DNA from: Squalus acanthias
Taxonomy: Eukaryota
Direction of reading: 5' to 3'
Assembly: GCA_030390025.1 (NCBI GenBank)
Contig: CM059431.1
Location: 108,254,001 to 108,318,000, forward strand
Length of the DNA stretch: 64,000 nt
This document shows positions 34,278 to 49,085 of the stretch, in pieces. The position numbers and the translations under genes are program-made. Each line of letters opens with the position of its first letter. Position 1 is the first letter of the stretch. Under the pieces are notes generated by a model. It saw only the letters and a program-made list of their open reading frames with translations, had not been told where the DNA came from and ran no database searches.

Positions 34278-35610
34278 GATATCAACCATGAGGGATTATG
34301 GAGTGTCCTCCTCAAATTCGGCTGCCCCCAAAAGTTTGTCACCATCCTCCGCCTACTTCACGACGACATGCAAGCCGTTATCCTGACCAACGGATCCACC
34401 ACAGACCCAATTCACGTACCGACCGGGGTCAAGCAAGGCTGTGTCATCGCACCAACGCTCTTTTCAATCTTCCTTGTTGCAATGCTCCATCTCACCCTCA
34501 GTAAGCTCCCCGCTGGAGTGGAGCTAATCTACAGAACAAACGGGAAACTGTTCAACCTCCGTTGCCTCCAGTCCAGATCCAAGGTCGTCCCATCCTCTGT
34601 CATCGAATTACAGTATGCAGACGACGCTTGCATCTGCGCACACTCGGAGGTTGAACTCCAAACCTTCGTCAACACCTTCACCGAAGCGTACGAGAGCATA
34701 GGCCTTATACTAAACATCCAGAAGACAAAGGTCCTCTACCAACCAGCCCCCGCCACACAGTACTGCCCCCCGATTATCAAAATCCACGACAAGGCCTTGG
34801 ACAACGTGGACCACTTTCCATACCTCGGGAGCCTACTGTCAACAAGGGCAGTCGTCGATGATGAAGTCCAACACCGCCTTCAGTGTGCCTGTGCAGCCTT
34901 CGGTCGCCTGAGGAAGAGAGTGTTTGAAGACTAGGACCTCAAATGCGGCACCAAGCTCATGGTCTACAGAGCAGTAGTGATACCCGCCCTGCTGTATGCT
35001 TCAGAGACATGGACCATGTACGGCAGGCACCTCAAAGCACTGGAGAGGTACCACCAACGCTGCCTTCGCAAGATCCTGCAAATCCATTGGCAGGATAGGT
35101 GCACCAACGTCAGTGTTCTCAGTCAGGCCAACATCCCCAGCATCGAAGCTTTGACCACGCTCGATCAGTCCGATGGACGGGCCACATCATCTGCATGCCC
35201 GATACAAGACTCCCAAAACAAGCGCTCTATTCGGAGCTCCAACACGGCAGGAGAGCCCCAGAGGGGCAGAGGAAATGCTTCAAGGACACCCTCAAAGCCT
35301 CCTTGAAAAAGTGCAACATCCCCTCCGACACCTGGGAATCCCTGGCCCAAGACCACTCAAAGTGGAGGAGAAGCATCCGGGAAGGCGTCAAACACCTCGA
35401 GTCTCTTTGGAAGCCAAGCGCAAACAGTGGAAGGAGCGCACGTCAACCCAAGCACCCAATCCACCCGCCCCTTGAACCACTGTCTGCCCCACCTGTGACA
35501 GAGACTGTAGGTCCCGCATTGGACTCACCAGTCACCTGAGAACTCATTTTTAGTGTGGAAGCAATTCATCCTCGGTTCCGAGGGACTGCCTAAGAAAGAG
35601 AAGAAGAATA
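34278..35610 (+). mobile_element. 5'-truncated RTE-clade LINE
   Basis: RT motifs GVKQGCVIAPTLFS, QYADD, FPYLGS, AFGRLRKRVF and RTE-type C-terminus (RLPKQALYSEL); one stop at 34932 and frameshifts; short purine-rich tail; sits inside the tail of a Deu-SINE. Confidence 0.88.
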
Positions 35611-35839: not shown

Positions 35840-35952
35840 GTCAAAGCTAAAGGCACTATATCTGAATGCGTGAAGGATTTGCAACAAAATAGATGAATTA
35901 ATAGCGGAGATAGAAATTAATAGGTTCAATCTAATAGCCATTACGGAGATGT
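35840..35952 (+). mobile_element. CR1 ORF2 AP-endonuclease fragment, left of provirus
   Basis: Translates LKALYLNA*RICNKIDELIAEIEINRFNLIAITEM and continues as WLQSNHGRELNIPGY right of the provirus. Confidence 0.85.
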
Positions 35953-37660
35953 TGTAAGGGATTCTCTCCTGACCCTGCGTGTCTCGTAGCCTGTGAGATT
36001 CACGCGGCTCTGTGCAGCCTGTATGTCAGTGCGGGTCTAGGCCTGGTCTCCAGCCAGTCTGGGAACACTAGACACCCCTGTGAGTGGTTCGAATCACTCT
36101 CCCTTACGGTTCTAGACACTGGACTTAGATGCGAGAGCAGTAATGGAGATAAAACTCATGTAGACTTGGTTTGAACGGTACGAAATGGAAAATCTTTATT
36201 GCATGATACTTAAAATTATGAAATACATGTCATATGCACAGATTAATGACAGTACAATCTTACAAACAGTTATAATCACTCTTAGGGAAACGAGGAACGA
36301 CCAGCACAACGTAAATAGGGCACACATTACAAATATCCTTAATCTTTAAACCCTCCCCTATCAATAACTATCCTAAAACTAGCTTCGTAGGACCTCGAGA
36401 CTCATGCTCACCACTCGTAATAACTCGGAGAAATCCCGAATAGCTGATCGGATGTTTTTCACCGCAGCACCCACGTGTTGGTCAGGAGATCTCCTGGTCC
36501 CACTTGTTTACTGCTTCTGCTGCTCGGTCAGTCGGCTGGACCGTCCGCTGTAGTGAAGACCTCTGTTGGTTGGATACAGGGTATGGTGGAGCACCGTTGT
36601 CAATATCGCTGATACGATGTGTTTACACAGTCCAGTTATCGTCGATGCAATATGTCTTGTTAAAGAAGAAAACTTCCTGTCGAGAAGACTTGGCTGATCG
36701 ACCTACAGGCGCGGTCGGGATTTACTGACCGTGGCGATGGATAAGGTCTTCTTCTCTTCTCCTCTCATCTCATCTCATCTCATCTCATCTCATCTCATCT
36801 CATCTCATCTCATCCCGGGCCTTCGGTTCCGCTGCCAGCTACCAACATAGGTCTTTGCAACAGTCTTTTACCCAGGAGCAGCCACGATGATAACAGCAAC
36901 AAGCGGCAAGAGTCAAGAACACGAGGCAAGCAGCAAGAGCAAGAGGCCAGAGCAAGAATCAAGAGAGCGAATGGACGGTTTGGGGCCTGCAATTATAGTG
37001 CACAGTTCTTCCGTTTCCCGCCCAACTACAATGTCCATTCTTTTGTTTAAGGTTTGGCGCCCAAATTATAGTGCACAGTTCTTCCGTTTCCCGCCCAACT
37101 ACAATGTCCATTCTTTTGTTTAAGGTTTGGCGCCCAAAATGTCCTGTATGGGTGATCTCTGTCCTTAATGGGTTTCGGGGCTACTCCTGAATGTTTGAGT
37201 ACCTGTTAATATTTCTCCCATTGTTAAATCGGTCGGTGTTCCCCCTGGAGGGGTTTGGGGCTTCCAAGTGTCCTGTATAACTACCTGCTAACGGCTCTCT
37301 CATCGTAGAGCCGTTGGGAGTTTACATACTAATGTCCTTTGGATGGGCCCTTGATGGCTTTCCTTTGTACCTGGGAGACCGATTCCAGTATCGATGTTTA
37401 TACTGTAAACCCATAATGTCCTGTGTATTGTCTTCACTGTGCTGAATCGTTATCGATCTTGCAAGAATGTTTATTGGAACGCCATCTTGTCTGCCTGCTG
37501 AAAAGTCTAGAATGTTCTGTCACGCGGTGCGGCGGCCATTTTACAGGCTGCTTGTGTCCAATTTAAACCTGACAGCATTCCGCTGAAATAAAAGCTGTTT
37601 TGAACGAAACTTGTGTTTTCTCCTTATTAAAATGAAATCGCGATAATTGCGAATTCTACA
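35953..37660 (-). repeat. 3' LTR (1708 bp)
   Basis: Direct repeat of 47042-48739; termini TGTA...TACA; (CATCT)9; 73-bp tandem duplication; minus-strand AATAAA candidates at 36195-36200 and 37470-37475. Confidence 0.97.
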
Positions 37661-37672
37661 GTCCCTCCTGTT
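37661..37672 (-). promoter_or_regulatory. Polypurine tract (short)
   Basis: Minus strand AACAGGAGGGAC directly abuts the TG of the 3' LTR. Confidence 0.7.
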
Positions 37673-38085
37673 GATGCGAATAACTCCGCTTATCGTATCA
37701 AAAATCTCAGTGGTGAGCAATCTTATCTCGATTTCACTCCGAATCCAGTAAATTAATCCCATAAAAATTTTAACTTCACTATGGTCTCTGTGTCGTCCTT
37801 ATTTCCCAAGAAAATCACATTTTATATCACCGTAGGCATCATTTGCCCTTAAACTTACACCACTTGTTTTCCTTCCCGGTGTAACCAGGCCGATACCTCA
37901 CGCATCACCTGTATATTTGTCTTTTATTCAAGGGAAGGAAAAACAAAACCCAAAAACCAAACAATCAACACCATCACCAAAATAAACAAATCCCGACTCT
38001 TAAACATGTCGAGTTTCCAACGTATTTACAATGGGTACAAACTTCCGCGGCGCACGTGGCGAGCGGGAGTGACGCCATTTTCCCA

Positions 38086-40437
38086 TTACACTGCGCTCTC
38101 ATCGTGCACGCGCACGTAACGTTCTCGCCACTCTCCCGTGTTCTCATGCTTGGTGAGGCGTTTGTCTCTTTTACAATGTATGAACAAAAGGTATACTACA
38201 ATAAACACTTGACAGACGACTAAAATGTGGGAGGCTATTCTGACCCATGAGGGCACTTCAATATTCGTGAACAGATTCCACCACGGTGGAACCACTATGT
38301 CCAAAATGTCTGTACCTATCTCGACGGTTTTCTGTTCTAATGTATAGAAATGCTTTTGTGACACCGCGACGGCTTTCAGAAGTTTGGTTAAATGCTCAGG
38401 GAGAGGGGGAATGAGGTACCCAAAATGTGCGACAAATCGCTGCAAGTCGGTAAAATTCTCTTTTACTGTGAGATGAACAGTGGATGGTTCAGGGATTGGG
38501 ATAATTCGCTGTTGTGCTACTTGAACTTCAGCCCTGGGTTTAAAACAGAAACTGCTGTCACTCACCGGACACCGGCTACGGTTTCCATGCTGGTAGTGTT
38601 GCGCTGCAGTGGTAACACAATATGTTCCACCCCCGATGTATGCTACCTGCGGAGGCACATGATCTTGTGCCATTGCCTCCATGGTGCAATTCATGGACTT
38701 GGCGCCAGCCGTTCTGAACCCGCACTGTGGTGTTAAAAAGGCATTCAAGTGCTGGGGGCACAGTATTATGTGTGCTCCCCTGCCACGACAACCAGAGAGA
38801 TCTGTACCTGTCATCGTTTGCTCCCAGCGGATGACGTAAGGTGGAACCGCTGCATAACGAATGTGGGCTCCCCCCTGAATGACACCAATGTTCTCTACCC
38901 GATACACCGGGGCGGGCTTTGCTGTGTTGCCCAAAACCGGCATGCGTAATACTATTCCCATAATAGTATGGTTTGAACGTCCGCAGTCCACGGGGACTGG
39001 GTAAGCTTCTGAAGCTAGCCTGAGCTGGCACGGACTTAATGCGTTCTGAAAAGGGTGGAGCGCCCGCAGGTGTTTGTTACTTATCCAGGACGGAACCAAA
39101 CCTTGTTTTAAATCCTCCAAATTACTGCGGCCCTCGCCCAGTAACCACGCCCCGTAAAGCACGCACACCTCGTTCTGCGCAGCCTGATCGGATGCATTCC
39201 GATCTTCCCTAATCAGGGCATTTACCGTACGCGCATGTTTCTCCAGCTCTGCTATGATTTCCTTTAAGTGTAGTGTCATGGCTTGGTCCTCGTGCAGACC
39301 CGACCCTACCACTTTATTCTCATCTGTAAGAATATCCTTTAACTGTGTTTTTAAACCATTAATCTGGGTCTGCAGCTCCACACTGTCTAGAGCGTTGACC
39401 ACAGATGTCCCTGTATTAAAAGCAGTGAACGCATCGTTCACCAAACCCCTTCTTTGCCTCCCTACTTGGTCCAAAACTTCCTGCGGTGCGGTGTATAAAC
39501 TTGTCTTATCAATTTCTGCAAAATCAAACTCGTAAAATTGCCTGAACATCTTGGTCAACAGGACCTGGTACAACTGTTCCGTCTTTTTGGGGCACCACTC
39601 TGGTAACCGTACCTCAGTGAGATTTAAAATCACCGAGGCCACCGCGTAATGCACTCCCTGAAATAGTATCTGGTCTGTGGGGACCAGTACCAAACCGTTC
39701 CCGGGTCCCTTACTAGTTTTAGGGCACCCTTCTTCCTCAGTTAGAACTACCGGAATCGTGGGCGGGGCTTTGCGTGGGCGCGTGATGAGCTCAGTGGCAT
39801 TTACTGGGATCGGAGAGTATGGGGCTCCGCACCCCCTGGTGCTCGCATCCCACCTCATCCCCTGTCCGTTATCCTGCCACTGGTTAATAAAGAATATGGA
39901 GATGCCTTTGGGGCAAACGTACTTTGACCCCCACATACAAACATAAATCCCCTCATCTGGTTCCCACCATTTGTCCCAACAGACTTTCACTTGTCCGTCT
40001 GTCCCCGTAATTGTCCGATGGGTATTATTACCCAGTCGCTCCCACTCAACCGAAGAGTTCCTCATAGTTTTGCTCAGCTTTCGCAGCCACCACCATCGGC
40101 TCAATGGGACATTCCCACTGCAGGTCAAACAAATCCGTTTGCCGACGGTGACGCTGATCCTGGGTGCGATGATCCGTACTTTGGGGCACATTAAAGAAGT
40201 CTCTTTATAGGCGAACCCCGATGTGCTGGAATACTCCGTTGAGTTCGTTCCCAGCCATCCTGGCCACCTTCCCTTGTGGAAATAGGTGCTGGTCCCTTCT
40301 GCCTTCCGTCTCCCGGTCCCATCCACCGCGATGGGGGCCGTGTCCCCGGAACATCCAAACACCACGACATCCTTGGTGAGGCCCCGATAGGCCAATCCAC
40401 ATCCGATTGCCACGAGCAAAACTAGAAGTCGTTCCAT
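38086..40437 (-). CDS. env: Envelope glycoprotein, 783 aa: signal peptide, Ig-like domain, F-type class I fusion protein, TM anchor
   Basis: Hydrophobic N-terminus, N-glycosylation sequons, furin site RQRR (aa 327-330) then fusion-peptide-like GLVNDAFTAFNTGTSVVNAL, heptad region, Cys-rich ectodomain, TM aa ~734-754, short tail. Confidence 0.9.
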   Translation of the reverse strand: MERLLVLLVAIGCGLAYRGLTKDVVVFGCSGDTAPIAVDGTGRRKAEGTSTYFHKGRWPGWLGTNSTEYSSTSGFAYKETSLMCPKVRIIAPRISVTVGKRICLTCSGNVPLSRWWWLRKLSKTMRNSSVEWERLGNNTHRTITGTDGQVKVCWDKWWEPDEGIYVCMWGSKYVCPKGISIFFINQWQDNGQGMRWDASTRGCGAPYSPIPVNATELITRPRKAPPTIPVVLTEEEGCPKTSKGPGNGLVLVPTDQILFQGVHYAVASVILNLTEVRLPEWCPKKTEQLYQVLLTKMFRQFYEFDFAEIDKTSLYTAPQEVLDQVGRQRRGLVNDAFTAFNTGTSVVNALDSVELQTQINGLKTQLKDILTDENKVVGSGLHEDQAMTLHLKEIIAELEKHARTVNALIREDRNASDQAAQNEVCVLYGAWLLGEGRSNLEDLKQGLVPSWISNKHLRALHPFQNALSPCQLRLASEAYPVPVDCGRSNHTIMGIVLRMPVLGNTAKPAPVYRVENIGVIQGGAHIRYAAVPPYVIRWEQTMTGTDLSGCRGRGAHIILCPQHLNAFLTPQCGFRTAGAKSMNCTMEAMAQDHVPPQVAYIGGGTYCVTTAAQHYQHGNRSRCPVSDSSFCFKPRAEVQVAQQRIIPIPEPSTVHLTVKENFTDLQRFVAHFGYLIPPLPEHLTKLLKAVAVSQKHFYTLEQKTVEIGTDILDIVVPPWWNLFTNIEVPSWVRIASHILVVCQVFIVVYLLFIHCKRDKRLTKHENTGEWRERYVRVHDESAV

Positions 40438-40722
40438 CCTTCCTTGGTTCCTGTGATCAGATAGAATGAGGTAGCCAGCCTCGCAAAAAGTCTCTGGCTT
40501 TTGTGAAGGGTGAGCGGGTCCCCTGACCTCGCCTCACGTAAACTTCAACGTTTGCTAAATAGACTTCCTCTAAACCTAGCCTTAAAACTCCCATCATTAT
40601 GTCGTCATCTGTTAAAAACACTACAAACTTAACCTTATTAAAACTACTTAAAACTTTAAACTAAAACTTAAAACCTTAAACTAATAACTTTACAATGCCG
40701 CCCGTTCTCAGGGCGGCCCCCT

Positions 40723-43700
40723 TTAAATCCTGAGAAGGCTGCTGCGAGCTCTTCCCGACGGTGGGAGGGCACTGACCCTTCCCTCTGATCTGCCGCAGCC
40801 TGTTGCTGCGCTGACCCTTTCCTCTGATCTGCCGCAGCCTGTTACTGCTTCGATGTGGCCTGTCTCTACCCGGGTTATCTTAACCTGAAACTTACGCCCT
40901 GGGGCAGCCTGGGGACCTGACCACATCTTCCTGGGCTGGGGTACTCTGCTTGACCTACGGGGAATTGCTATGGGCGGGGGCTCCGTGACGGACGGACCGG
41001 GTCCCGAGACCTTCAACGGGATGACCTGGGGCTCCATCACAGGCGCCAGCCCCGCCTCCGCTGACTCCGCCTCCCTAACCTCGGGGCTGACAGTTCGGGG
41101 CCCCGCCCTGCTCGGCCCAGCAGGCGGCCCTTCACTCGCGAACTCTGCCTCCCCTGAGGACTGGACGTTCAAAGCGGGCGGCCACACCTCTGGGAACCAC
41201 ATAGCGGCTGGCCCGGCCTCCTCTAGCTCCTTCCTCCTGCTGTCGGGACCTGCAGCTTGTGTGTCCACTCCGTATGGATCTCTACCTAGCGGCCCCAATC
41301 CTTCCAGACCGTTCCTCTGAAACCACCCGTCATCATCACTCTGCTCATCTGCACTATCCTCATCTGACCAGGGTACCCTGGGGTCCTCGTCATCTAACCC
41401 CCAACTCCAGAAAAACGCTGCATGATCGTCCGGGATGTCCCTTCCCCTGATGCAAGCTGCTACGCCTGCCTGTGTGCCTTGTGGTCCTACCTGGGGCTGT
41501 GTTTTCCCATTGGCGGGATTTACCCCTGTAGTTTTCCCTTGCGCACCCGGCTGGTACAGTTTACATTGGTTTATGTGGAACCACTTAGTGCGCCGAGGTA
41601 CTTTTACGGCGTAAACCATGGGACTTGCCTTGTCTACAATGTTGTAGGGTCCCATGTACAGTGGTTCCAGACTCCCTACTCTGGCGTAGTTTCTGACCAT
41701 GACCTGGTCTCCTACTTCCCACTCCCGCGTTTTGCGGGGTTCCAGCAACAAGCGATTGCCCTGGTGCTGCCTTCCCATGTTCCCAGCCGCCTGCTCATAA
41801 ACTTGCTTCAGGCGCTCCAAGAGAGTTTGGGCGAACTTGTCCCTGCTGATCTCTTGAAGCTGACCCTCAGTGAGCACCGGGGCTAGCACATGGGTGGGGG
41901 TTCGCATGAGCCTGCCGGTCATTACCTCGTGCGGGGAGTACCCCGTACTTTTTGACTGACTGGCCCGGACCCCCATGAGGACTAAAGGCAGAACTTCCGC
42001 CCATTTTTGGGGCGAGTTCCTAGTCTCTTTCCTCAATTTCTCCTTCAGGGTCCGGTTCATACGTTCAACAATCCCGGATGACTGGGGATTGTGTGCTACG
42101 TGCCACTTCCCTTCAATGCCCAAAAGCATGAGGGTGTTCTGCATCACCTGGCCGGTGAAATGACTCCCTTGGTCTGACTCCACAAAACGGGGGAGTCCCC
42201 ACCGCGAGAACACTTCCCGGACCAAGATTTTTGCTGTACCCAGTGCCGTAGCTGTTCGACAAGGGAAGGCTTCCACCCACTTGGAAAACACATCCACCAG
42301 GACGAGGCAGTACTTATAACCTCCCTGGGTGGTGGGCAGGGGTCCTATATAGTCGATCTGTATCGACTGCCATGGTCCCTCTACCCTTCTTACGTGTCCC
42401 ATGGGCACCTTCCTTTTCTGGGGGTCTGGGTTATTTGCAGCGCACACAAGACAGTTTGCACAGAACTCGCGGACTTGTTCCCTGAGCCCTGGCCACCATC
42501 CCGCTTGCTCTACCCGTTGCCAGGTAACCTCGGGCCCGGGGTGCCCTGCCCCTGGTCCCTCGTGAGCCAACTGGAGGAATTCCCTCCTGTGCTGCTGCGG
42601 CACAACCCACTGCTCCTCGCGGAACAGCATGCCTTCCTTAACTGAGAGGGTTGCCGTACTGTACGGACCTTCTACCTGCCTCCCCTCAGCAATCGTTTTT
42701 AGGACTGCTTTTAGGGCGGGATCCTGGGCTTGGACGGTCTTAAGGTCTAGGGGCAATGCTACCCTGGTGTTCCCGGTATTCCCGTCCCCACCTCGGACCG
42801 CTGCTATGGGTCCGGTTCTATAGGGGTTCCAGAAAGTACCGTCGCGGGCACCCTCCCTGGCTAGCGCATCCGCCTGCCGGTTGCCCTCCCCACGGGGCTC
42901 TGTGGAGGAGTGAGCTTTCACCTTATGGATGAAAATCTCCCCTTCCTCCCCTACTGCTGCTGCTAAGATCTTTTCCAGCAAGGGCTTTACCGTTAAAGGT
43001 CGCCCGTCCGCGGAGGTGTATCCACGGCGGGACCAAATGGCCAGGTATTCCGTACACGAATTGCAGGTGAACATACTGTCCGAGCAAATCGTGTATGGGG
43101 TTGGGAAAATGTCTGGGTGGGTTACCACGTACACCACGGCAGACAGCTCAGCCTGCTGCGCGCTCATGGTGCTAGGGAGCTTGATCGCCAGGGCAAGGTC
43201 TGCCGCAGGGTCATAAACTCCACACCCTGTGAGTCGCTCGCCAGCAGATACTGTGCTAGACCCATCAACATAAATCTCGCGCCCAGTGGGATGTATCCCG
43301 GCCCGTAAACCTATGTTGACGTCCCACACCCCCTCCACCGAACACCGGTGGGCTGTACCGGGGTATACCAAATTGGCCGCAAGCCTGGGCTCGCAAAGAC
43401 CTTTTACTCTGATGTCCAACTGGGAGAGAAGAAGGGTCCAACGCGCAATGCGTGCGCTGCTTACGGTCCCGTCTTTAATCCTCCCATCCAGAAGCATCTT
43501 AGTTGGTGTGTGATGTGTGAGGAGAGTGATGGGAGAGAGCCCTGTGAAGATCGCTGATCTTTTCACAGCCCAATGCGTGGCTAAAAGGTGCCTTTCGCAA
43601 TTGGAAAAACTTCTCTCCACATCCGTTAATACCCTGGATGAATAGACAACCGGCCTCAGCTTGCCGTGACGCTCTTGGAGCAGCACGGCGCTTAAGCTGT

Positions 43701-45225
43701 CTCCGCTGGCAGCTACCTCCAGGAAAAACTCCTCCCCCCCATCTATGGCCCCTAAGGCTGGCGCGGTCTGCAGATCCCTTTTTAACTTCTCGAAGGCTGC
43801 TTGGCAGCCCTCGTCCCAAAGCCACTCTACTCCCTTATGGAGGAGTCGGAGGAGCGGCGCCGCTGTGGCCGCATAATCCTCGATAAAATCCCTGCAGTAA
43901 CCGGTCAGTCCCAAGAAGGACCTCACACCCCTTACGTTGTTGGGAATCGGTAATTCTTGCACCGACTCCCTCCTTGCTTTGTCTATGGCTCTTTCCCCAG
44001 CGCGTAGGGTCAGTCCCAGGAATTTTACTTCCTGCTGACCGATACGTGCTTTCTTTGGGTTTACTTTAAAACCCTTTCTCGCTAACAGCTCCAATAACTC
44101 GTCCAGCAGTGGTCCGTGCTCCTCCCTTGAGTCCGTAAATAGGAGCAAATCATCCACATACTGTACTATCTGATTGGGCTGACTAAACTCCTTTAAACTT
44201 CCTGCCATACACTGGTGAAAAATACTGGGGCTATTGTGGAAACCTTGTGGCAAGCAGTTCCACGTGTACTGTTGCCCTTTAAACGTAAAAGCAAACTTGT
44301 ACTGGTCCTCTCGCCGCAGCGGGATGGACCAAAAACCGTTCGAGATATCCAGCACCGTGAACGTGGTCGCGGACGCTGGGATGCTCCCTATTAGGTCAGC
44401 AACTGCTGCTACTGTGGGCGCGCAGGCGGGGATGTTACTGTTAAGGACTCTGTAGTCCACCGTGGCTCTCCACGAATTATCCGGCTTCCTAACCGGCCAT
44501 AATGGGGAGTTCACGTGTGTGGCTATCGGCCTCAACACGCCCTGCTGCACCAAGGAAGACATTGCTGCCTCCATATCGGGTTCTGCTTCTTTGGGGAAGT
44601 TATACTGCTTTTGGGGTCGGGTCATGGGGTCCCCATCTACGCTGACCTCAAACCCGACCACCCTCCCACAATCGTGCTTGTGGGTTGCAAACGCGTGCAT
44701 ATTATCTGTCACGTACGTTTGCATGTCCGTTGGGACATCTGCGACCATAAGCCTGAGGTCGTAGCCTCCGGATGGCTGTACGGTACACAGGACCCCTGTT
44801 TCTTCCTCCCCTTGAATTACCATTACCTCGCCTTTTTCACCTTTAGCCCCCCAGAGACAGTGATTTCTGAGGTCCACGAGGATCCCGTGTCCCGCTAGCA
44901 GATCGGACCCGAGAATACCTCTTCCACCCCCCTTTTGCCATGCCATCAGTATACACTTCCACTTAAGGCGAAGTGTCCCTAAACGAATGGATAGCGGGAG
45001 GGAAAACGTGCCAGCCTGTTCTTTCCCTGTGAACCCTGCTAGCGTGAATGGGACCTTGGTAGATAGCGGCGAGTCAAAAGGGTCATCTGTATGGATTATG
45101 GTGCAAGAAGCTCCCGTATCCAACAAATAACTGCCCTTTTGTTTCTCTACCTCCATCTCCACCACAGGTCGCCTCCACGCATCATAGCTGAGCGGACACA
45201 GGTAGACGGGCTGTGCTGGTTCTAG
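40723..45225 (-). CDS. pol: Pol polyprotein: protease, RT, tether, RNase H, integrase, C-terminal extension
   Basis: LLDTGAS (DTG at 45112-45120), LPQGFHNSP, YVDD (44149-44160), RNase H YVDGS/AELSA/SDS/KAH/NRQAD, integrase HHCC, D-D-E (QIDYIG, SDQG, VERMN) and GPY motif. Open and in frame from the codon after the gag stop. Confidence 0.96.
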   Translation of the reverse strand, partial: LEPAQPVYLCPLSYDAWRRPVVEMEVEKQKGSYLLDTGASCTIIHTDDPFDSPLSTKVPFTLAGFTGKEQAGTFSLPLSIRLGTLRLKWKCILMAWQKGGGRGILGSDLLAGHGILVDLRNHCLWGAKGEKGEVMVIQGEEETGVLCTVQPSGGYDLRLMVADVPTDMQTYVTDNMHAFATHKHDCGRVVGFEVSVDGDPMTRPQKQYNFPKEAEPDMEAAMSSLVQQGVLRPIATHVNSPLWPVRKPDNSWRATVDYRVLNSNIPACAPTVAAVADLIGSIPASATTFTVLDISNGFWSIPLRREDQYKFAFTFKGQQYTWNCLPQGFHNSPSIFHQCMAGSLKEFSQPNQIVQYVDDLLLFTDSREEHGPLLDELLELLARKGFKVNPKKARIGQQEVKFLGLTLRAGERAIDKARRESVQELPIPNNVRGVRSFLGLTGYCRDFIEDYAATAAPLLRLLHKGVEWLWDEGCQAAFEKLKRDLQTAPALGAIDGGEEFFLEVAASGDSLSAVLLQERHGKLRPVVYSSRVLTDVERSFSNCERHLLATHWAVKRSAIFTGLSPITLLTHHTPTKMLLDGRIKDGTVSSARIARWTLLLSQLDIRVKGLCEPRLAANLVYPGTAHRCSVEGVWDVNIGLRAGIHPTGREIYVDGSSTVSAGERLTGCGVYDPAADLALAIKLPSTMSAQQAELSAVVYVVTHPDIFPTPYTICSDSMFTCNSCTEYLAIWSRRGYTSADGRPLTVKPLLEKILAAAVGEEGEIFIHKVKAHSSTEPRGEGNRQADALAREGARDGTFWNPYRTGPIAAVRGGDGNTGNTRVALPLDLKTVQAQDPALKAVLKTIAEGRQVEGPYSTATLSVKEGMLFREEQWVVPQQHRREFLQLAHEGPGAGHPGPEVTWQRVEQAGWWPGLREQVREFCANCLVCAANNPDPQKRKVPMGHVRRVEGPWQSIQIDYIGPLPTTQGGYKYCLVLVDVFSKWVEAFPCRTATALGTAKILVREVFSRWGLPRFVESDQGSHFTGQVMQNTLMLLGIEGKWHVAHNPQSSGIVERMNRTLKEKLRKETRNSPQKWAEVLPLVLMGVRASQSKSTGYSPHEVMTGRLMRTPTHVLAPVLTEGQLQEISRDKFAQTLLERLKQVYEQAAGNMGRQHQGNRLLLEPRKTREWEVGDQVMVRNYARVGSLEPLYMGPYNIVDKASPMVYAVKVPRRTKWFHINQCKLYQPGAQGKTTGVNPANGKTQPQVGPQGTQAGVAACIRGRDIPDDHAAFFWSWGLDDEDPRVPWSDEDSADEQSDDDGWFQRNGLEGLGPLGRDPYGVDTQAAGPDSRRKELEEAGPAAMWFPEVWPPALNVQSSGEAEFASEGPPAGPSRAGPRTVSPEVREAESAEAGLAPVMEPQVIPLKVSGPGPSVTEPPPIAIPRRSSRVPQPRKMWSGPQAAPGRKFQVKITRVETGHIEAVTGCGRSEERVSAATGCGRSEGRVSALPPSGRARSSLLRI

Positions 45226-47037
45226 TCATGGGGCACTATTAGACGGTCCTGCGGCACCTACGGGGCCGGTTGCGACCGCCACCTGTCCACGCGCATTCAA
45301 AACCATCTTGCGCATGACTCCTAACACTGCCTCGAGGTCTTCGGGAGAGGTGGGTGCCTTTGCTTCCTTAGCCGGGACAGGCGCCTGGGTTCGGACCGCG
45401 GGATTTTTATCCTTGGAATCCTTCCAAGGGTTCCTGCAGTGCTTGCGCCAGTGCCCTGTCTTCCCACACCCGTAACAGGCATTACTTGCCTGTGGGGCGC
45501 GATTACCCTCCTGATGCCACTCTCTTTGAGTCGGGGCTGCGGGTCGTACCTCATGTACTCTTCCCTTAAAGGGACGGGTTGCCATACCCCTTATGTTACG
45601 GTAACCTAACGTGAGTCGATTCAAGACCGACTCTTCCGTAAGGTTGAGGTCATTGGGATCGAACCAGGCTTTTGCCTGCTCTCTAACGGCTGGTAAACTG
45701 TTGGCTATTATGCACCTAAGCCAATGAATTAAAGCGGCGCCTTCCACATCTTCGCGCTCGGGCGCACCTAGACAGCTGCGCTCATATACTGGCCACAGCC
45801 TGTCGGCAAAAACCTTCGGGGGTTCTCCCTCCATCTGCACTGTCTGTCCCACTCTAGCAAACGGACCTCCGTCGTTCGCTCCCACTACTTCTAGGACCTC
45901 ATTTTTCAATTCCTCATAACTTTTATTACCCCTCTTGCTATCGCCTGAGAGACACTGAAGGACCGAGCTATCTAAAGAGAACAGCAGCATTTTTGCTGTC
46001 TCCCCATCATCGCAGCCGTTGATGGCTGCGGCTTGCTCAACTTCCCTGAAATGTACGGAAGGGTCGTCTATCTCGGTCAGCTTCCTTACGTGGTTTATCA
46101 TGGCCCTCAGCTGATGTGAACTGTGAAGCAACACCAGCTGTCCGAGGAGATCCCCCGGTTCTTCCCCACCGTTTCTGCTTGGGCCCCTTTTAATCCCCGT
46201 TACTGGATACAACGATCCCTTTTCTACCTCTTTTTCAACGGGCTCTTTTGTTTCTTCCGTTGCTTCCTCCCTAACCCAGGTTTCTGAATAGCTGGGTGGC
46301 GCGGAGGGCGCACTGGCTACTACTTCTTCTGCTTTACTTGGTGGGGAATTTCTAAATCTCTCATTTACTAGCGGCTGGCGTGCCGACGGATTAATAAGGC
46401 ACACCATGCCGTTCGCATTATTCACGGCCTTTTTGAGGCTCTCTATCTCCTTTTCGCAGGCGCTATGGTCGGCTCCCTGAAACTTATCCTCAAGGGCCAA
46501 CTTATACGCCGACCTAACCCCCATTAAGCTCTCTTCTTGAGTTCTTATCTGGGCAGCTTGACGGTTACATCTTTCCTTCATCCTACTCTCGTTTAATTTT
46601 GCTTCAGTGATCTGGCACTCGAGATACTCTACCCTTGTTTTAAGGTAACTGGAGACTTCCTGGCTTTCCTGGCGTAACTCATGTAAACTCTTAATGAGCG
46701 CCTCCCCTCCAGAAACCTTCTCCTCCATTTCCTCCTCTAGATGCTTGATTCGAGCGGTTAGCGCTGTATTGGTCTGGTTTGAAATCTGAACCTGCCTTTT
46801 GTAGCACATAAGCCAGACTGCTTTCTCAACTGCCTTTTTATGCTCCTTACTATCCGTCCACCTTTCAGCTGCCTCTAGTGGGCTCTTATCCGCTAACAAT
46901 TCGCTTATCCACTTTTTCGTTAGATTAACCTTCCCAAACACGTAATCCGCTATCTTTTCCTGCATAACATTTCGTACAGTCATTCCAAAATCTAACACAC
47001 TACCCTCTCGCTGCCAGTGTCCTGCCGCGGGCGCCAT
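45226..47037 (-). CDS. gag: Gag polyprotein, 603 aa
   Basis: Position between PBS and protease; coiled-coil-like N-terminal half, PSAPPSY late-domain motif, single CCHC knuckle CYGCGKTGHWRKHC (45436-45477). Confidence 0.92.
   Translation of the reverse strand: MAPAAGHWQREGSVLDFGMTVRNVMQEKIADYVFGKVNLTKKWISELLADKSPLEAAERWTDSKEHKKAVEKAVWLMCYKRQVQISNQTNTALTARIKHLEEEMEEKVSGGEALIKSLHELRQESQEVSSYLKTRVEYLECQITEAKLNESRMKERCNRQAAQIRTQEESLMGVRSAYKLALEDKFQGADHSACEKEIESLKKAVNNANGMVCLINPSARQPLVNERFRNSPPSKAEEVVASAPSAPPSYSETWVREEATEETKEPVEKEVEKGSLYPVTGIKRGPSRNGGEEPGDLLGQLVLLHSSHQLRAMINHVRKLTEIDDPSVHFREVEQAAAINGCDDGETAKMLLFSLDSSVLQCLSGDSKRGNKSYEELKNEVLEVVGANDGGPFARVGQTVQMEGEPPKVFADRLWPVYERSCLGAPEREDVEGAALIHWLRCIIANSLPAVREQAKAWFDPNDLNLTEESVLNRLTLGYRNIRGMATRPFKGRVHEVRPAAPTQREWHQEGNRAPQASNACYGCGKTGHWRKHCRNPWKDSKDKNPAVRTQAPVPAKEAKAPTSPEDLEAVLGVMRKMVLNARGQVAVATGPVGAAGPSNSAP
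47019..47036 (-). promoter_or_regulatory. Primer-binding-site-like motif (tRNA-Lys-like)
   Basis: TGGCGCCCGCGGCAGGAC 5 nt after the 5' LTR; first 9 nt identical to the tRNA-Lys(UUU) PBS TGGCGCCCGAACAGGGAC, 13/18 overall. Confidence 0.65.
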
Positions 47038-47041
47038 TTTC

Positions 47042-48739
47042 TGTAAGGGATTCTCTCCTGACCCTGCGTGTCTCGTAGCCTGTGAGATTCACGCGGCTCT
47101 GTGCAGCCTGTATGTCAGTGCGGGTCTAGGCCTGGTCTCCAGCCAGTCTGGGAACACTAGACACCCCTGTGAGTGGTTCGAATCACTCTCCCTTACGGTT
47201 CTAGACACTGGACTTAGATGCGAGAGCAGTAATGGAGATAAAACTCATGTAGACTTGGTTTGAACGGTACGAAATGGAAAATCTTTATTGCATGATACTT
47301 AAAATTATGAAATACATGTCATATGCACAGATTAATGACAGTACAATCTTACAAACAGTTATAATCACTCTTAGGGAAACGAGGAACGACCAGCACAACG
47401 TAAATAGGGCACACATTACAAATATCCTTAATCTTTAAACCCTCCCCTATCAATAACTATCCTAAAACTAGCTTCGTAGGACCTCGAGACTCATGCTCAC
47501 CACTCGTAATAACTCGGAGAAATCCCGAATAGCTGATCGGATGTTTTTCACCGCAGCACCCACGTGTTGGTCAGGAGATCTCCTGGTCCCACTTGTTTAC
47601 TGCTTCTGCTGCTCGGTCAGTCGGCTGGACCGTCCGCTGTAGTGAAGACCTCTGTTGGTTGGATACAGGGTATGGTGGAGCACCGTTGTCAATATCGCTG
47701 ATACGATGTGTTTACACAGTCCAGTTATCGTCGATGCAATATGTCTTGTTAAAGAAGAAAACTTCCTGTCGAGAAGACTTGGCTGATCGACCTACAGGCG
47801 CGGTCGGGATTTACTGACCGTGGCGATGGATAAGGTCTTCTTCTCTTCTCCTCTCATCTCATCTCATCTCATCTCATCTCATCTCATCTCATCCCGGGCC
47901 TTCGGTTCCGCTGCCAGCTACCAACATAGGTCTTTGCAACAGTCTTTTACCCAGGAGCAGCCACGATGATAACAGCAACAAGCGGCAAGAGTCAAGAACA
48001 CGAGGCAAGCAGCAAGAGCAAGAGGCCAGAGCAAGAATCAAGAGAGCGAATGGACGGTTTGGGGCCTGCAATTATAGTGCACAGTTCTTCCGTTTCCCGC
48101 CCAACTACAATGTCCATTCTTTTGTTTAAGGTTTGGCGCCCAAATTATACTGCACAGTTCTTCCGTTTCCCGCCCAACTACAATGTCCATTCTTTTGTTT
48201 AAGGTTTGGCGCCCAAAATGTCCTGTATGGGTGATCTCTGTCCTTAATGGGTTTCGGGGCTACTCCTGAATGTTTGAGTACCTGTTAATATTTCTCCCAT
48301 TGTTAAATCGGTCGGTGTTCCCCCTGGAGGGGTTTGGGGCTTCCAAGTGTCCTGTATAACTACCTGCTAACGGCTCTCTCATCGTAGAGCCGTTGGGAGT
48401 TTACATACTAATGTCCTTTGGATGGGCCCTTGATGGCTTTCCTTTGTACCTGGGAGACCGATTCCAGTATCGATGTTTATACTGTAAACCCATAATGTCC
48501 TGTGTATTGTCTTCACTGTGCTGAATCGTTATCGATCTTGCAAGAATGTTTATTGGAACGCCATCTTGTCTGCCTGCTGAAAAGTCTAGAATGTTCTGTC
48601 ACGCGGTGCGGCGGCCATTTTACAGGCTGCTTGTGTCCAATTTAAACCTGACAGCATTCCGCTGAAATAAAAGCTGTTTTGAACGAAACTTGTGTTTTCT
48701 CCTTATTAAAATGAAATCGCGATAATTGCGAATTCTACA
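47042..48739 (-). repeat. 5' LTR (1698 bp)
   Basis: By eye differs from the 3' LTR only by two fewer CATCT units and one substitution (C48150 vs G37071). Confidence 0.97.
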
Positions 48740-49085
48740 ATGTGGTTGCAAAGTAACCATGGTAGGGAACTAAATATTCCAGGATACTTAACTTTTAGAA
48801 GAGATAGGCAAAATGGAAAAGGAGGGGGGCTAGTCCTGATAATAAAGGATGGGATAAAGACAGTAGAGAGAAAGAATCTTAGCTCCAAAAATCAAGAAGT
48901 AGAATCAGTTTTGGGGGAGCTAAGAAACAGCAAGGGGCAGAATACATTGGTGGGAGTTGGTTATAGGCCCCCAAACAGTAGTTGTAATGTAGGGCAGAGT
49001 ATAAATCAGGAAATTAGAGGCGCATGTAACAAAGGAAATCATGGGGGACTTTAATCTACATATAGACTGGGCAAACCAAATTTGC
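48740..49085 (+). mobile_element. CR1 ORF2 AP-endonuclease fragment, right of provirus
   Basis: WLQ...LNIPGYLTFRRDRQNGKGGG...VGVGYRPPNS...GDFN motifs. Confidence 0.88.

Follow-up and report, generated by a model that had tools for sequence, protein, structure and literature searches.

The window analyzed here, a 64,000-nucleotide stretch of Squalus acanthias DNA (assembly GCA_030390025.1, contig CM059431.1, positions 108,254,001 to 108,318,000), harbors on its minus strand a complete provirus with the arrangement LTR-gag-pol-env-LTR (35953..48739), which was delimited by a pair of long terminal repeats (LTRs) detected with blastn and by their TG...CA ends. All positions given below refer to this window, and all features lie on its minus strand unless stated otherwise. 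The present work concerns the env open reading frame (ORF) of this provirus (38086..40437), whose translation yields an envelope protein, Env, of 783 aa plus a stop codon. As described below, Env combines a core with the fold of the fusion protein F of paramyxoviruses and pneumoviruses with an N-terminal module that contains a domain very probably of the immunoglobulin (Ig) type.

Organization of Env and Its Fusion Core

Env starts with a putative signal peptide (approximately aa 1-16; 40390..40437), assigned from the hydrophobic N-terminus MERLLVLLVAIGCGLA and from a helix modeled at aa 2-14, with its cleavage site predicted. This is followed by an N-terminal sub-region (aa 17-85; 40183..40389) with C29, C84 and an invariant N65-S66, as judged from conservation in six to seven relatives, and by the Ig-like (V/I-type) domain (aa 86-185; 39883..40182), proposed on the basis of motifs, profile comparisons and conservation. 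The subsequent linker (aa 186-237; 39727..39882), which contains C203 and the sequon N213 and is rich in proline in its second half, had predicted local distance difference test (pLDDT) values below 50 in both AlphaFold models of Env that we calculated. The Pro/Thr-rich stretch that an initial annotation of this DNA, made from the sequence alone, had placed at aa 203-245 was recovered, its 43 residues including 9 Pro and 5 Thr.

The core opens with an F2-equivalent part (aa 238-330; 39448..39726), which extends from a 'CP...G-L' anchor beginning at C238 to the motif RQRR, and which was assigned from the conservation of the anchor and from the model. By its motif, RQRR (aa 327-330; 39448..39459) is a furin-type site, and a fusion-peptide-like segment, GLVNDAFTAF..., stands directly after the predicted cleavage point at RQRR330. 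The remainder of the protein, an F1/TM-equivalent part (aa 331-783; 38089..39447) recognized from AlphaFold secondary structure, Foldseek and hydropathy, shows the order fusion peptide (GLVNDAF...), long heptad helix, beta-rich head, membrane-proximal helix, transmembrane segment (TM) and tail. Helices were modeled at aa 332-376, 383-444 and 679-711, and strongly hydrophobic 19-residue windows were found only at aa 730-757, in the region to which hydropathy assigns the TM (approximately aa 734-756; 38170..38238).

The AlphaFold model of the whole Env, calculated from 39 aligned sequences, had a mean pLDDT of 63.5, with block means in the core of 84-94 (aa 241-300), 79-90 (aa 421-480) and 83-94 (most of aa 491-650). 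When this model was compared with the PDB by Foldseek, 236 matches at E <= 0.001 were obtained, and all 37 listed, the best of the 236, were F proteins of paramyxoviruses or pneumoviruses. The best match was F of human parainfluenza virus 3 (hPIV3; 1ztm) with an E of 2.9e-11, followed by post-fusion F of respiratory syncytial virus (RSV), Langya F and F of Newcastle disease virus (NDV), and sequence identity to the matched F proteins was 9-14%. Because of these matches, the F-like fusion module already noted in the initial annotation can be regarded as confirmed at the fold level, that is, the Env core is modeled as a class I fusion protein whose fold is of the paramyxovirus/pneumovirus F type. 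No Pfam match to PF00523 (Fusion_gly) at E <= 1 was found, neither in Env nor in the 12 relatives scanned. Env has about 220 extra residues that follow its signal peptide and precede the F2-equivalent part, and these comprise the domain considered next.

Evidence for an Ig-like Domain Ahead of the Core

Translation of window positions 39883-40182 on the minus strand gives Env aa 86-185. The motifs reported in the initial annotation were all located where it had placed them: ISVTVGKRICLTC at aa 94-106, ending in C106 (B strand), WWW at aa 115-117, and DEGIYVC at aa 161-167, ending in C167 (F strand). The spacing between C106 and C167 is 61 residues, as claimed, and lies inside the range of approximately 55-75 residues that characterizes Ig domains. 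Likewise, W117 (C strand) is situated 11 residues past C106, within the approximately 11-15 residues expected for the Ig Trp, with which it aligns in the comparisons with CRTAM and with host exons. The 100 residues contain 5 Cys and 8 Trp, among them three extra Cys (C103, C153 and C175) and the further Trp residues W154 and WW157-158; N-glycosylation sequons are present at N127 and N137 inside the domain and at N65 and N213 in its flanks.

With regard to conservation in the relatives that make up group A, W117 is kept in seven out of seven and C106 in six out of seven, the exception being a degraded fragment. C167, G163 and Y165 are present in all five relatives that reach these positions, four of which have D and one E at position 161. 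Identity over the Ig segment to the five relatives that cover most of the domain was 71, 72, 64, 54 and 48%, and the segment is conserved as much as its flanks.

In Pfam, Ig_3 was the only family matched by the 100-aa segment (E 0.027, 15.4 bits), and Ig_3 was found in three of the seven group A members (best E 0.0067). The Ig_3 scores remained below the curated cut-off of 30 bits. A phmmer search of PDB sequences placed JAM-A and two antibody light-chain variable (VL) chains on top, at an E of about 1. With a trimmed profile of the seven relatives (A3), four PDB matches were obtained, the top two being the CRTAM IgV domain (E 0.067 and 0.12), in an alignment that spans approximately 90 residues with the Cys, the Trp and DEG-Y-C in canonical register. 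The untrimmed alignment (A1), which retrieved zinc-finger proteins only, was discarded; one of its rows, P0005, comes from a gene model that is chimeric and includes a zinc-finger part. In a feature search of the ESM Atlas with aa 80-195, nine of the ten best named clusters were Ig families (ig, V-set, I-set and Ig_3), with scores of 0.88-0.90, a score of 0.9 being also reached by 4-10 out of 100 shuffled proteins according to the tool's own figure.

For a control from the host itself, 20 exons, spread across contigs, were chosen from the 150 that matched Ig_3 best in the same genome; they were aligned and compared by hhalign with the profile of the seven group A relatives, cut to aa 84-190. 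This comparison gave a score of 22.9 (P 8.5e-4) over 71 columns, again in the canonical Cys/Trp/D-G-Y-C register. None of 100 column-shuffled group A profiles reached this score (mean 10.8, standard deviation 2.3, maximum 19.3), the reversed alignment scored 9.2, and the Env flanks gave no signal against the host Ig alignment (P 0.62 for aa 17-88 and P 0.29 for aa 180-245). At the structural level, all 48 Foldseek matches listed for a model of the N-terminal part were entries of antibodies or nanobodies or of the IgSF receptors CTLA-4 and CD8alpha, the targets being as long as a single V domain, with E values of 0.011-0.05 and TM-scores by target of 0.36-0.49 that derive from a low-confidence model. 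In the whole-Env model, the module had low block-mean pLDDT values of 42-71; the strand order as modeled would be compatible with Ig.

Each of these six lines of evidence is weak to moderate, and all of them point the same way. Judged from sequence and profiles, we consider it probable that Env aa 86-185 adopt an Ig fold of V/I type. The presence of such a domain ahead of the F-like module, the central claim of the initial annotation, was supported by the shuffling control (0/100), by the Pfam, PDB, ESM and Foldseek results and by the conserved landmarks. Owing to the low confidence of both AlphaFold models, the Ig fold is placed no higher than probable, and a contact between C106 and C167 would follow from it as a prediction.

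Relatives of Env and Variation of the N-terminal Module

When 1.84 billion representatives were searched exhaustively with phmmer, 49 proteins were matched, and a word-indexed search retrieved three close relatives, all of them gene models from skate and sawshark, two of which are chimeric with cellular genes. The sources named among the 49 matches were the sharks Mustelus, Chiloscyllium, Heterodontus, Scyliorhinus, Pristiophorus and Rhincodon, the skate Rhinoraja, the frogs Pelodytes, Mantella and Xenopus, and the coelacanth; no Env relative was found in the IMG/VR viral contigs. Among the public gene models, P0004, P0005, P0018 and P0041 are chimeric, their env fragments being fused either with cellular genes (Niban-like, zinc-finger) or with gag or pol pieces from elements of this same kind.

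Eight matches (P0003, P0005, P0007, P0011, P0017, P0018, P0027 and P0041) had their best stretch in the N-terminal module. All eight begin in the leader or the first sub-region (query aa 1-55), neither of which is Ig, and they are therefore env fragments and not host Ig genes. The Ig-like domain was detected at 48-72% identity in env fragments from skate, sawshark, whale shark and a metagenome, and the donor search in protein databases revealed no host Ig gene among the 49 phmmer matches that could have provided it. In terms of composition, the Ig segment (GC 0.493, GC3 0.590) is similar to the remaining env, with no break in GC or GC3.

The full-length relatives P0013, P0014, P0020, P0036 and P0048 and the 398-aa fragment P0024 align with the Squalus Env only from query aa 221-237 on, and each has 149-188 residues of its own ahead of the CP anchor. 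The 'CP...G-L' anchor opens the core in all nine Envs examined, preceded by 237 residues in the Squalus Env, by 149-227 in seven relatives and by 21, corresponding to the signal peptide, in the coelacanth protein P0049.

In comparison with the host Ig alignment, the modules of these diverged Envs behaved differently. Group B, consisting of shark Envs with a core 23-28% identical (P0014 and 34 copies from the Squalus genome itself), gave an hhalign score of 21.1 (P 0.0045), and group D (P0036) one of 30.0 (P 4.9e-5), and none of 60 shuffles did as well in either case. P0036 also matched Pfam V-set at an E of 0.045, and P0014 bears the automatic UniRef/UniProt name 'Ig-like domain-containing protein'. 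The modules of group C (two frog proteins) look Ig-like by eye, and their score of 14.7 (P 0.05) was equaled by 6 of 60 shuffles and is not significant. The Cys-rich module of group E (P0013, P0024 and P0032) showed no Ig signal (score 10.1, P 0.37), the ESM Atlas gave no usable match for it, and a global alignment between the group A and group E modules was unconvincing. The survey of related Envs thus bore out an Ig-like module in groups B and D and did not extend it to the other lineages, the group C signal being not significant, the group E module Cys-rich and the coelacanth protein devoid of a module. In a tree of Env cores, which is effectively unrooted and contains two long branches, the query joined group E with a support of 100/100, and groups B, C and D and the coelacanth protein stood opposite.

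The diverged lineages with an Ig-like module are, overall, 18-28% identical in the core and carry the module at the same position; any capture of a host domain would have been old. With no donor among the 49 phmmer matches, no break in composition and Ig-like modules in diverged Envs, the proposal of the initial annotation that a host Ig domain was captured by this element was not supported. Common descent of the Ig-like modules across Env groups may be considered plausible, and we read the N-terminal module as an old, variable feature of the Env family, which appears to be Ig-like in several lineages, Cys-rich in one and absent in another.

Comparison with Known Systems

In the published lokiretroviruses, the Env model lists a signal peptide, a fusion peptide, a coiled coil and a TM only (main text of Wang & Han 2020, PMC7947760). 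Their Env is F-related and matched PF00523 at an E of 2.2e-7, and the host groups named in that main text are lampreys, ray-finned and lobe-finned fishes, amphibians as well as reptiles (PMC7947760). The Squalus element resembles them in its LTR-gag-pol-env plan, in a pol with a degenerate (tether) RNase H and a second RNase H, and in an Env with a signal peptide, furin-type site, fusion peptide, coiled coil and TM that is related to F and not to retroviral Envs. The F relation of the Squalus Env, however, is one of structure and not of the Pfam model used in PMC7947760, to which, unlike the lokiretrovirus Env described there, it gave no match at E <= 1. A further difference is the cartilaginous-fish host, a group unnamed in the main text of that survey, with which the comparison was made by description. 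In line with a lokiretroviral affinity, full-length relatives of Pol aa 200-1100 were 38-44% identical in frogs and coelacanth and 28-34% in teleosts, all with the double RNase H, and Ty3/gypsy elements matched only about 43% of the Pol query. The Squalus element therefore agrees with the published lokiretroviruses in its genome plan, in having an F-related Env and in the hosts of its Pol relatives, and is termed lokiretrovirus-like.

In the main text of PMC7947760, the terms 'immunoglobulin', 'Ig-like', 'receptor', 'N-terminal', 'cartilaginous', 'shark' and 'Chondrichthyes' each had 0 occurrences, and the main text of PMC9040795 (Wang & Han 2022) is without 'cartilaginous', 'shark' and 'immunoglobulin'. 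More generally, no description of an Ig-like domain in a retroviral or lokiretroviral Env was found in the main texts searched. The statement of the initial annotation that no retroviral Env with such a domain is known agrees with this, apart from the automatic Ig-like name of P0014.

The likeness to paramyxovirus/pneumovirus F (hPIV3 1ztm, RSV, Nipah/Langya) comprises the core fold and the order of parts, namely F2, basic cleavage site, fusion peptide, heptad helix, beta-rich head, membrane-proximal helix and TM. In these viruses, F2 begins directly after the signal peptide, and attachment is provided by a separate HN, H or G protein, whereas the Squalus Env has the approximately 220 residues with the Ig-like domain and the Pro-rich linker before its F2 equivalent. 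Gammaretroviral surface subunits (SU) consist of an N-terminal receptor-binding domain (RBD), a proline-rich region and a C-terminal domain, and variation of the module tracks receptor use. They may be considered analogous to the Squalus Env in having a variable N-terminal beta-sandwich module, a Pro-rich linker and a fusion-controlling part, but this analogy would be functional only, given that the fusion machinery is unrelated (gamma-type TM versus F-type core). Finally, the Ig-like domain shares with cellular Ig superfamily (IgSF) V/I-set domains (CRTAM IgV 4h5s and 3rbg; JAM-A 1f97; antibody VL) the B-strand Cys, the C-strand Trp, the D-x-G-x-Y-x-C motif and the Cys spacing of 61, and the best sequence and profile matches run over approximately 80-90 residues. 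Unlike these cellular domains, it has three extra Cys (103, 153 and 175), a Trp-rich surface and scores far under family thresholds, and no identifiable parent gene was found among the 49 phmmer matches.

Further Features of the Provirus

The 5' LTR (approximately 1.7 kb; 47042..48739) and the 3' LTR (35953..37660), both located by blastn, align over 1708 columns with 99.36% identity and 11 differences, 10 of which are gap positions; each LTR runs from a TG to a CA. On both sides of the provirus, a target-site duplication of 4 bp, ACAT, was read directly from the sequence, upstream at 48740..48743 and downstream at 35949..35952. Five nt past the 5' LTR lies a primer-binding-site-like sequence, TGGCGCCCG... 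(47019..47036), which we take to be the primer-binding site on the grounds of its TGG start, its position and what is known of such sites. Immediately 5' of the 3' LTR, AACAGGAGGGAC (37661..37672) resembles a polypurine tract, a function that its position would suggest.

The gag ORF, taken from the ORF list and Pfam, codes for 603 aa from its first ATG and contains one CCHC knuckle (45226..47037). The zf-CCHC match is weak (Pfam E 0.31), and a CxxCxxxxHxxxxC pattern can be seen in the protein sequence. The first ATG overlaps the primer-binding-site-like TGGCGCCCG... (window 47019-47037), and Gag therefore probably initiates at a later Met, the next in-frame one being aa 19 of the gag ORF. The N-terminal part of Gag (window 46450-46850, aa approximately 63-190) showed weak, sub-threshold matches of coiled-coil type to TEX13, Spc29 and Rab11-FIP3 (Pfam E 0.25-0.86). 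According to the main text of PMC7947760, an SMC-like gene is present in some lokiretroviruses.

The pol ORF (40723..45156; 1477 aa) has, by Pfam, the domain order protease, reverse transcriptase, degenerate RNase H (tether), RNase H, integrase with an H2C2 zinc domain and a long C-terminal tail, with E values of 9.5e-36 for RVT_1, 6.2e-21 for RT_RNaseH_2, 2e-19 for RNase_H, 1.6e-17 for Integrase_H2C2 and 5.5e-15 for rve. The tail (window 40723-41700, Pol aa approximately 1150-1477) extends about 275 residues past the SH3-like domain of the integrase (Pfam end at approximately aa 1201), is first acidic and then rich in Pro, Gly and Ser, and matched no Pfam family. On the plus strand just beyond the 3' LTR (window 34368-35539), ORFs with a reverse-transcriptase YADD motif (QYADDACICAHS) were observed; they have the appearance of a non-LTR retrotransposon fragment, with no relation to the provirus.

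Copies in the Squalus Genome and in Public Runs

A search of the 3.7-Gb Squalus assembly with Env aa 1-246 gave 6151 first-look candidates, 150 of which were scored, such that the copy number is a lower bound. All 150 matches listed were 100% identical over the 246 residues searched, and 121 of them lie in an open frame of at least 815 codons. These identical copies, at least 150 in number, together with the near-identical LTRs and a host group unnamed in the lokiretrovirus survey, point to very recent activity and to an extremely young and abundant family of endogenous retroviruses. Some copies are situated approximately 10.97-11.01 kb apart on one contig (three on C3520 and two each on C841 and C3), a spacing that suggests tandem LTR-internal-LTR arrays of the element.

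The same genome contains older, mostly broken copies of group B Envs, 34-80% identical to P0014. The group B env frame is open over 784 aa in at least one copy (e.g., L034:1189-3543), the rest being mostly interrupted by stops, and the N-terminal module of this open frame reads ...VPEGNGVRVQLHCS...GWYRKV...LNWPSFWPRHEGEY... Given these copies, a single host contains at least two lineages of F-type Env that differ in their Ig-like modules.

Part of a 901-base env stretch (window 39600-40500) was present in 14 public runs from eight studies and seven organisms. The contigs of three runs, each from a different one of these organisms, cover all of 37661-48739, that is, the provirus without its 3' LTR, and approximately one third of the contigs are at least 99% alike. 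In one run, contig depth at the env end and the LTR was several-fold above that at pol, for which RNA or copy number are both possible reasons. No joint between a leader and env was seen in the contigs of the three runs, which may represent RNA or DNA.

Discussion

The interpretation that we favor, and regard as reasonably probable, is that the Squalus Env represents an F-like core with a probable Ig-type N-terminal domain as its own receptor-binding part, and that this module is old and variable. In such a protein, furin would cleave at RQRR330 after removal of the signal peptide, and the resulting N-terminal subunit (aa 17-330) would carry the sub-region, the Ig-like domain and the linker. 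This subunit would be held to the membrane-anchored subunit via its F2-like part, leaving the Ig-like domain exposed at the surface. An exposed module that varies between lineages would be the candidate receptor-binding part of Env, and it may also act as a trigger or clamp that holds or releases the metastable core. In that capacity, it would take the role that HN, H or G plays for paramyxovirus F, and that the RBD and proline-rich region play in gammaretroviral SU. Since a retroviral particle is without a separate attachment protein, we infer that the module is the part that binds the receptor.

This interpretation has to be weighed against several alternatives, one of which concerns the fold itself. 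The order Cys...Trp...D-x-G-x-Y-x-C could also arise in another beta-rich domain with many Trp and Cys, to which permissive Ig profiles respond, and a number of our own results weigh in this direction and against an Ig domain shared by the Env family. No Ig match passed a curated or conventional threshold, with Ig_3 at 11.6-17 bits versus the cut-off of 30, the PDB profile at an E of 0.067 and hhalign at a probability of 23.7%. Foldseek with the N-terminal model gave no match at E <= 0.001; the model of Env aa 1-260, built from nine sequences, had a mean pLDDT of 33.9; and the whole-Env model draws aa 112-126, where the C strand is expected, as a helix. A content of 5 Cys and 8 Trp per 100 residues is unusual for Ig, and shuffled proteins attained the ESM score of 0.9 in 4-10 of 100 cases. 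Moreover, the lines of evidence are not independent, as most of them draw on the same few landmarks and the Foldseek 3Di+AA score also uses residues. In the family, the signal of the frog modules of group C was not significant (6 of 60 shuffles equal), and hhalign between the N-terminal modules of groups A to E aligned the linker and anchor region only (best P 0.013-0.37). We nevertheless consider a non-Ig fold unlikely: four libraries (Pfam, PDB sequences, ESM Atlas and PDB structures) yielded only Ig families or V domains, over the whole domain and in the same register, the hhalign score was reached by none of the 100 shuffles and by neither flank, and independent Env lineages gave the same signal at the same position.

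The remaining alternatives accept an Ig-like module and differ in its function or its age. It might serve as an immune decoy that mimics a host IgSF molecule, or as a glycan-bearing cap, with receptor binding assigned to the F-like head, given that pneumovirus F is capable of attachment on its own. In large DNA viruses, Ig-like domains frequently have immunomodulatory roles, and the sequons N127 and N137 in the domain and N65 and N213 in its flanks would suit a shield. The coelacanth relative without the module is a further point in its favor, since the core can evidently exist alone. However, the module is covalently part of the outer subunit, at a position matching that at which class I fusion proteins carry their receptor-binding domains, and from lineage to lineage the kind of module varies on a core that is retained, as one would expect of a determinant of host range; a decoy or shield as its function thus appears quite improbable. 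Less probable still is a recent capture of a host IgSF exon by the element or its immediate ancestors that would have given rise to a novel type of Env. It is true that V domains of host adhesion or immune type (CRTAM, JAM-A and antibody VL) are the best sequence matches, and that in size the domain corresponds to a single Ig exon. Such an event is opposed by the 49 matches without a host donor, by the uniform composition, by env fragments of skate, sawshark, whale shark and a metagenome that contain the same domain at 48-72% identity, and by Ig-like modules in lineages whose Env cores share no more than 18-28% identity.

An Env of the F type (lokiretrovirus-like) that has an N-terminal module of probable Ig fold built into it, shared with diverged relatives, is not described in the main texts searched; its host, a cartilaginous fish, belongs to a group not named in the main text of the lokiretrovirus survey (PMC7947760). 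More speculatively, and with considerable doubt, F-type retroviral Envs in general might be self-sufficient machines for attachment and fusion, in which a swappable N-terminal cassette (Ig-like, Cys-rich or none) sets the host range. The Ig-like cassette would in that case have its origin in a host V domain of the adhesion type (CRTAM/JAM/nectin-like) and would bind the natural cell-surface partner of that molecule, and a lokiretrovirus-like virus would be spreading in cartilaginous fishes still or until very recently.

Paramyxoviruses need a second protein for attachment and for the triggering of fusion, and how a lone F-type Env manages on a retroviral particle is not addressed in the main texts searched. 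With a design that parallels the domain-plus-proline-linker arrangement of gammaretroviral SU, the variable N-terminal module of the Squalus Env would provide a testable candidate for the missing attachment function and a handle for finding the receptor.

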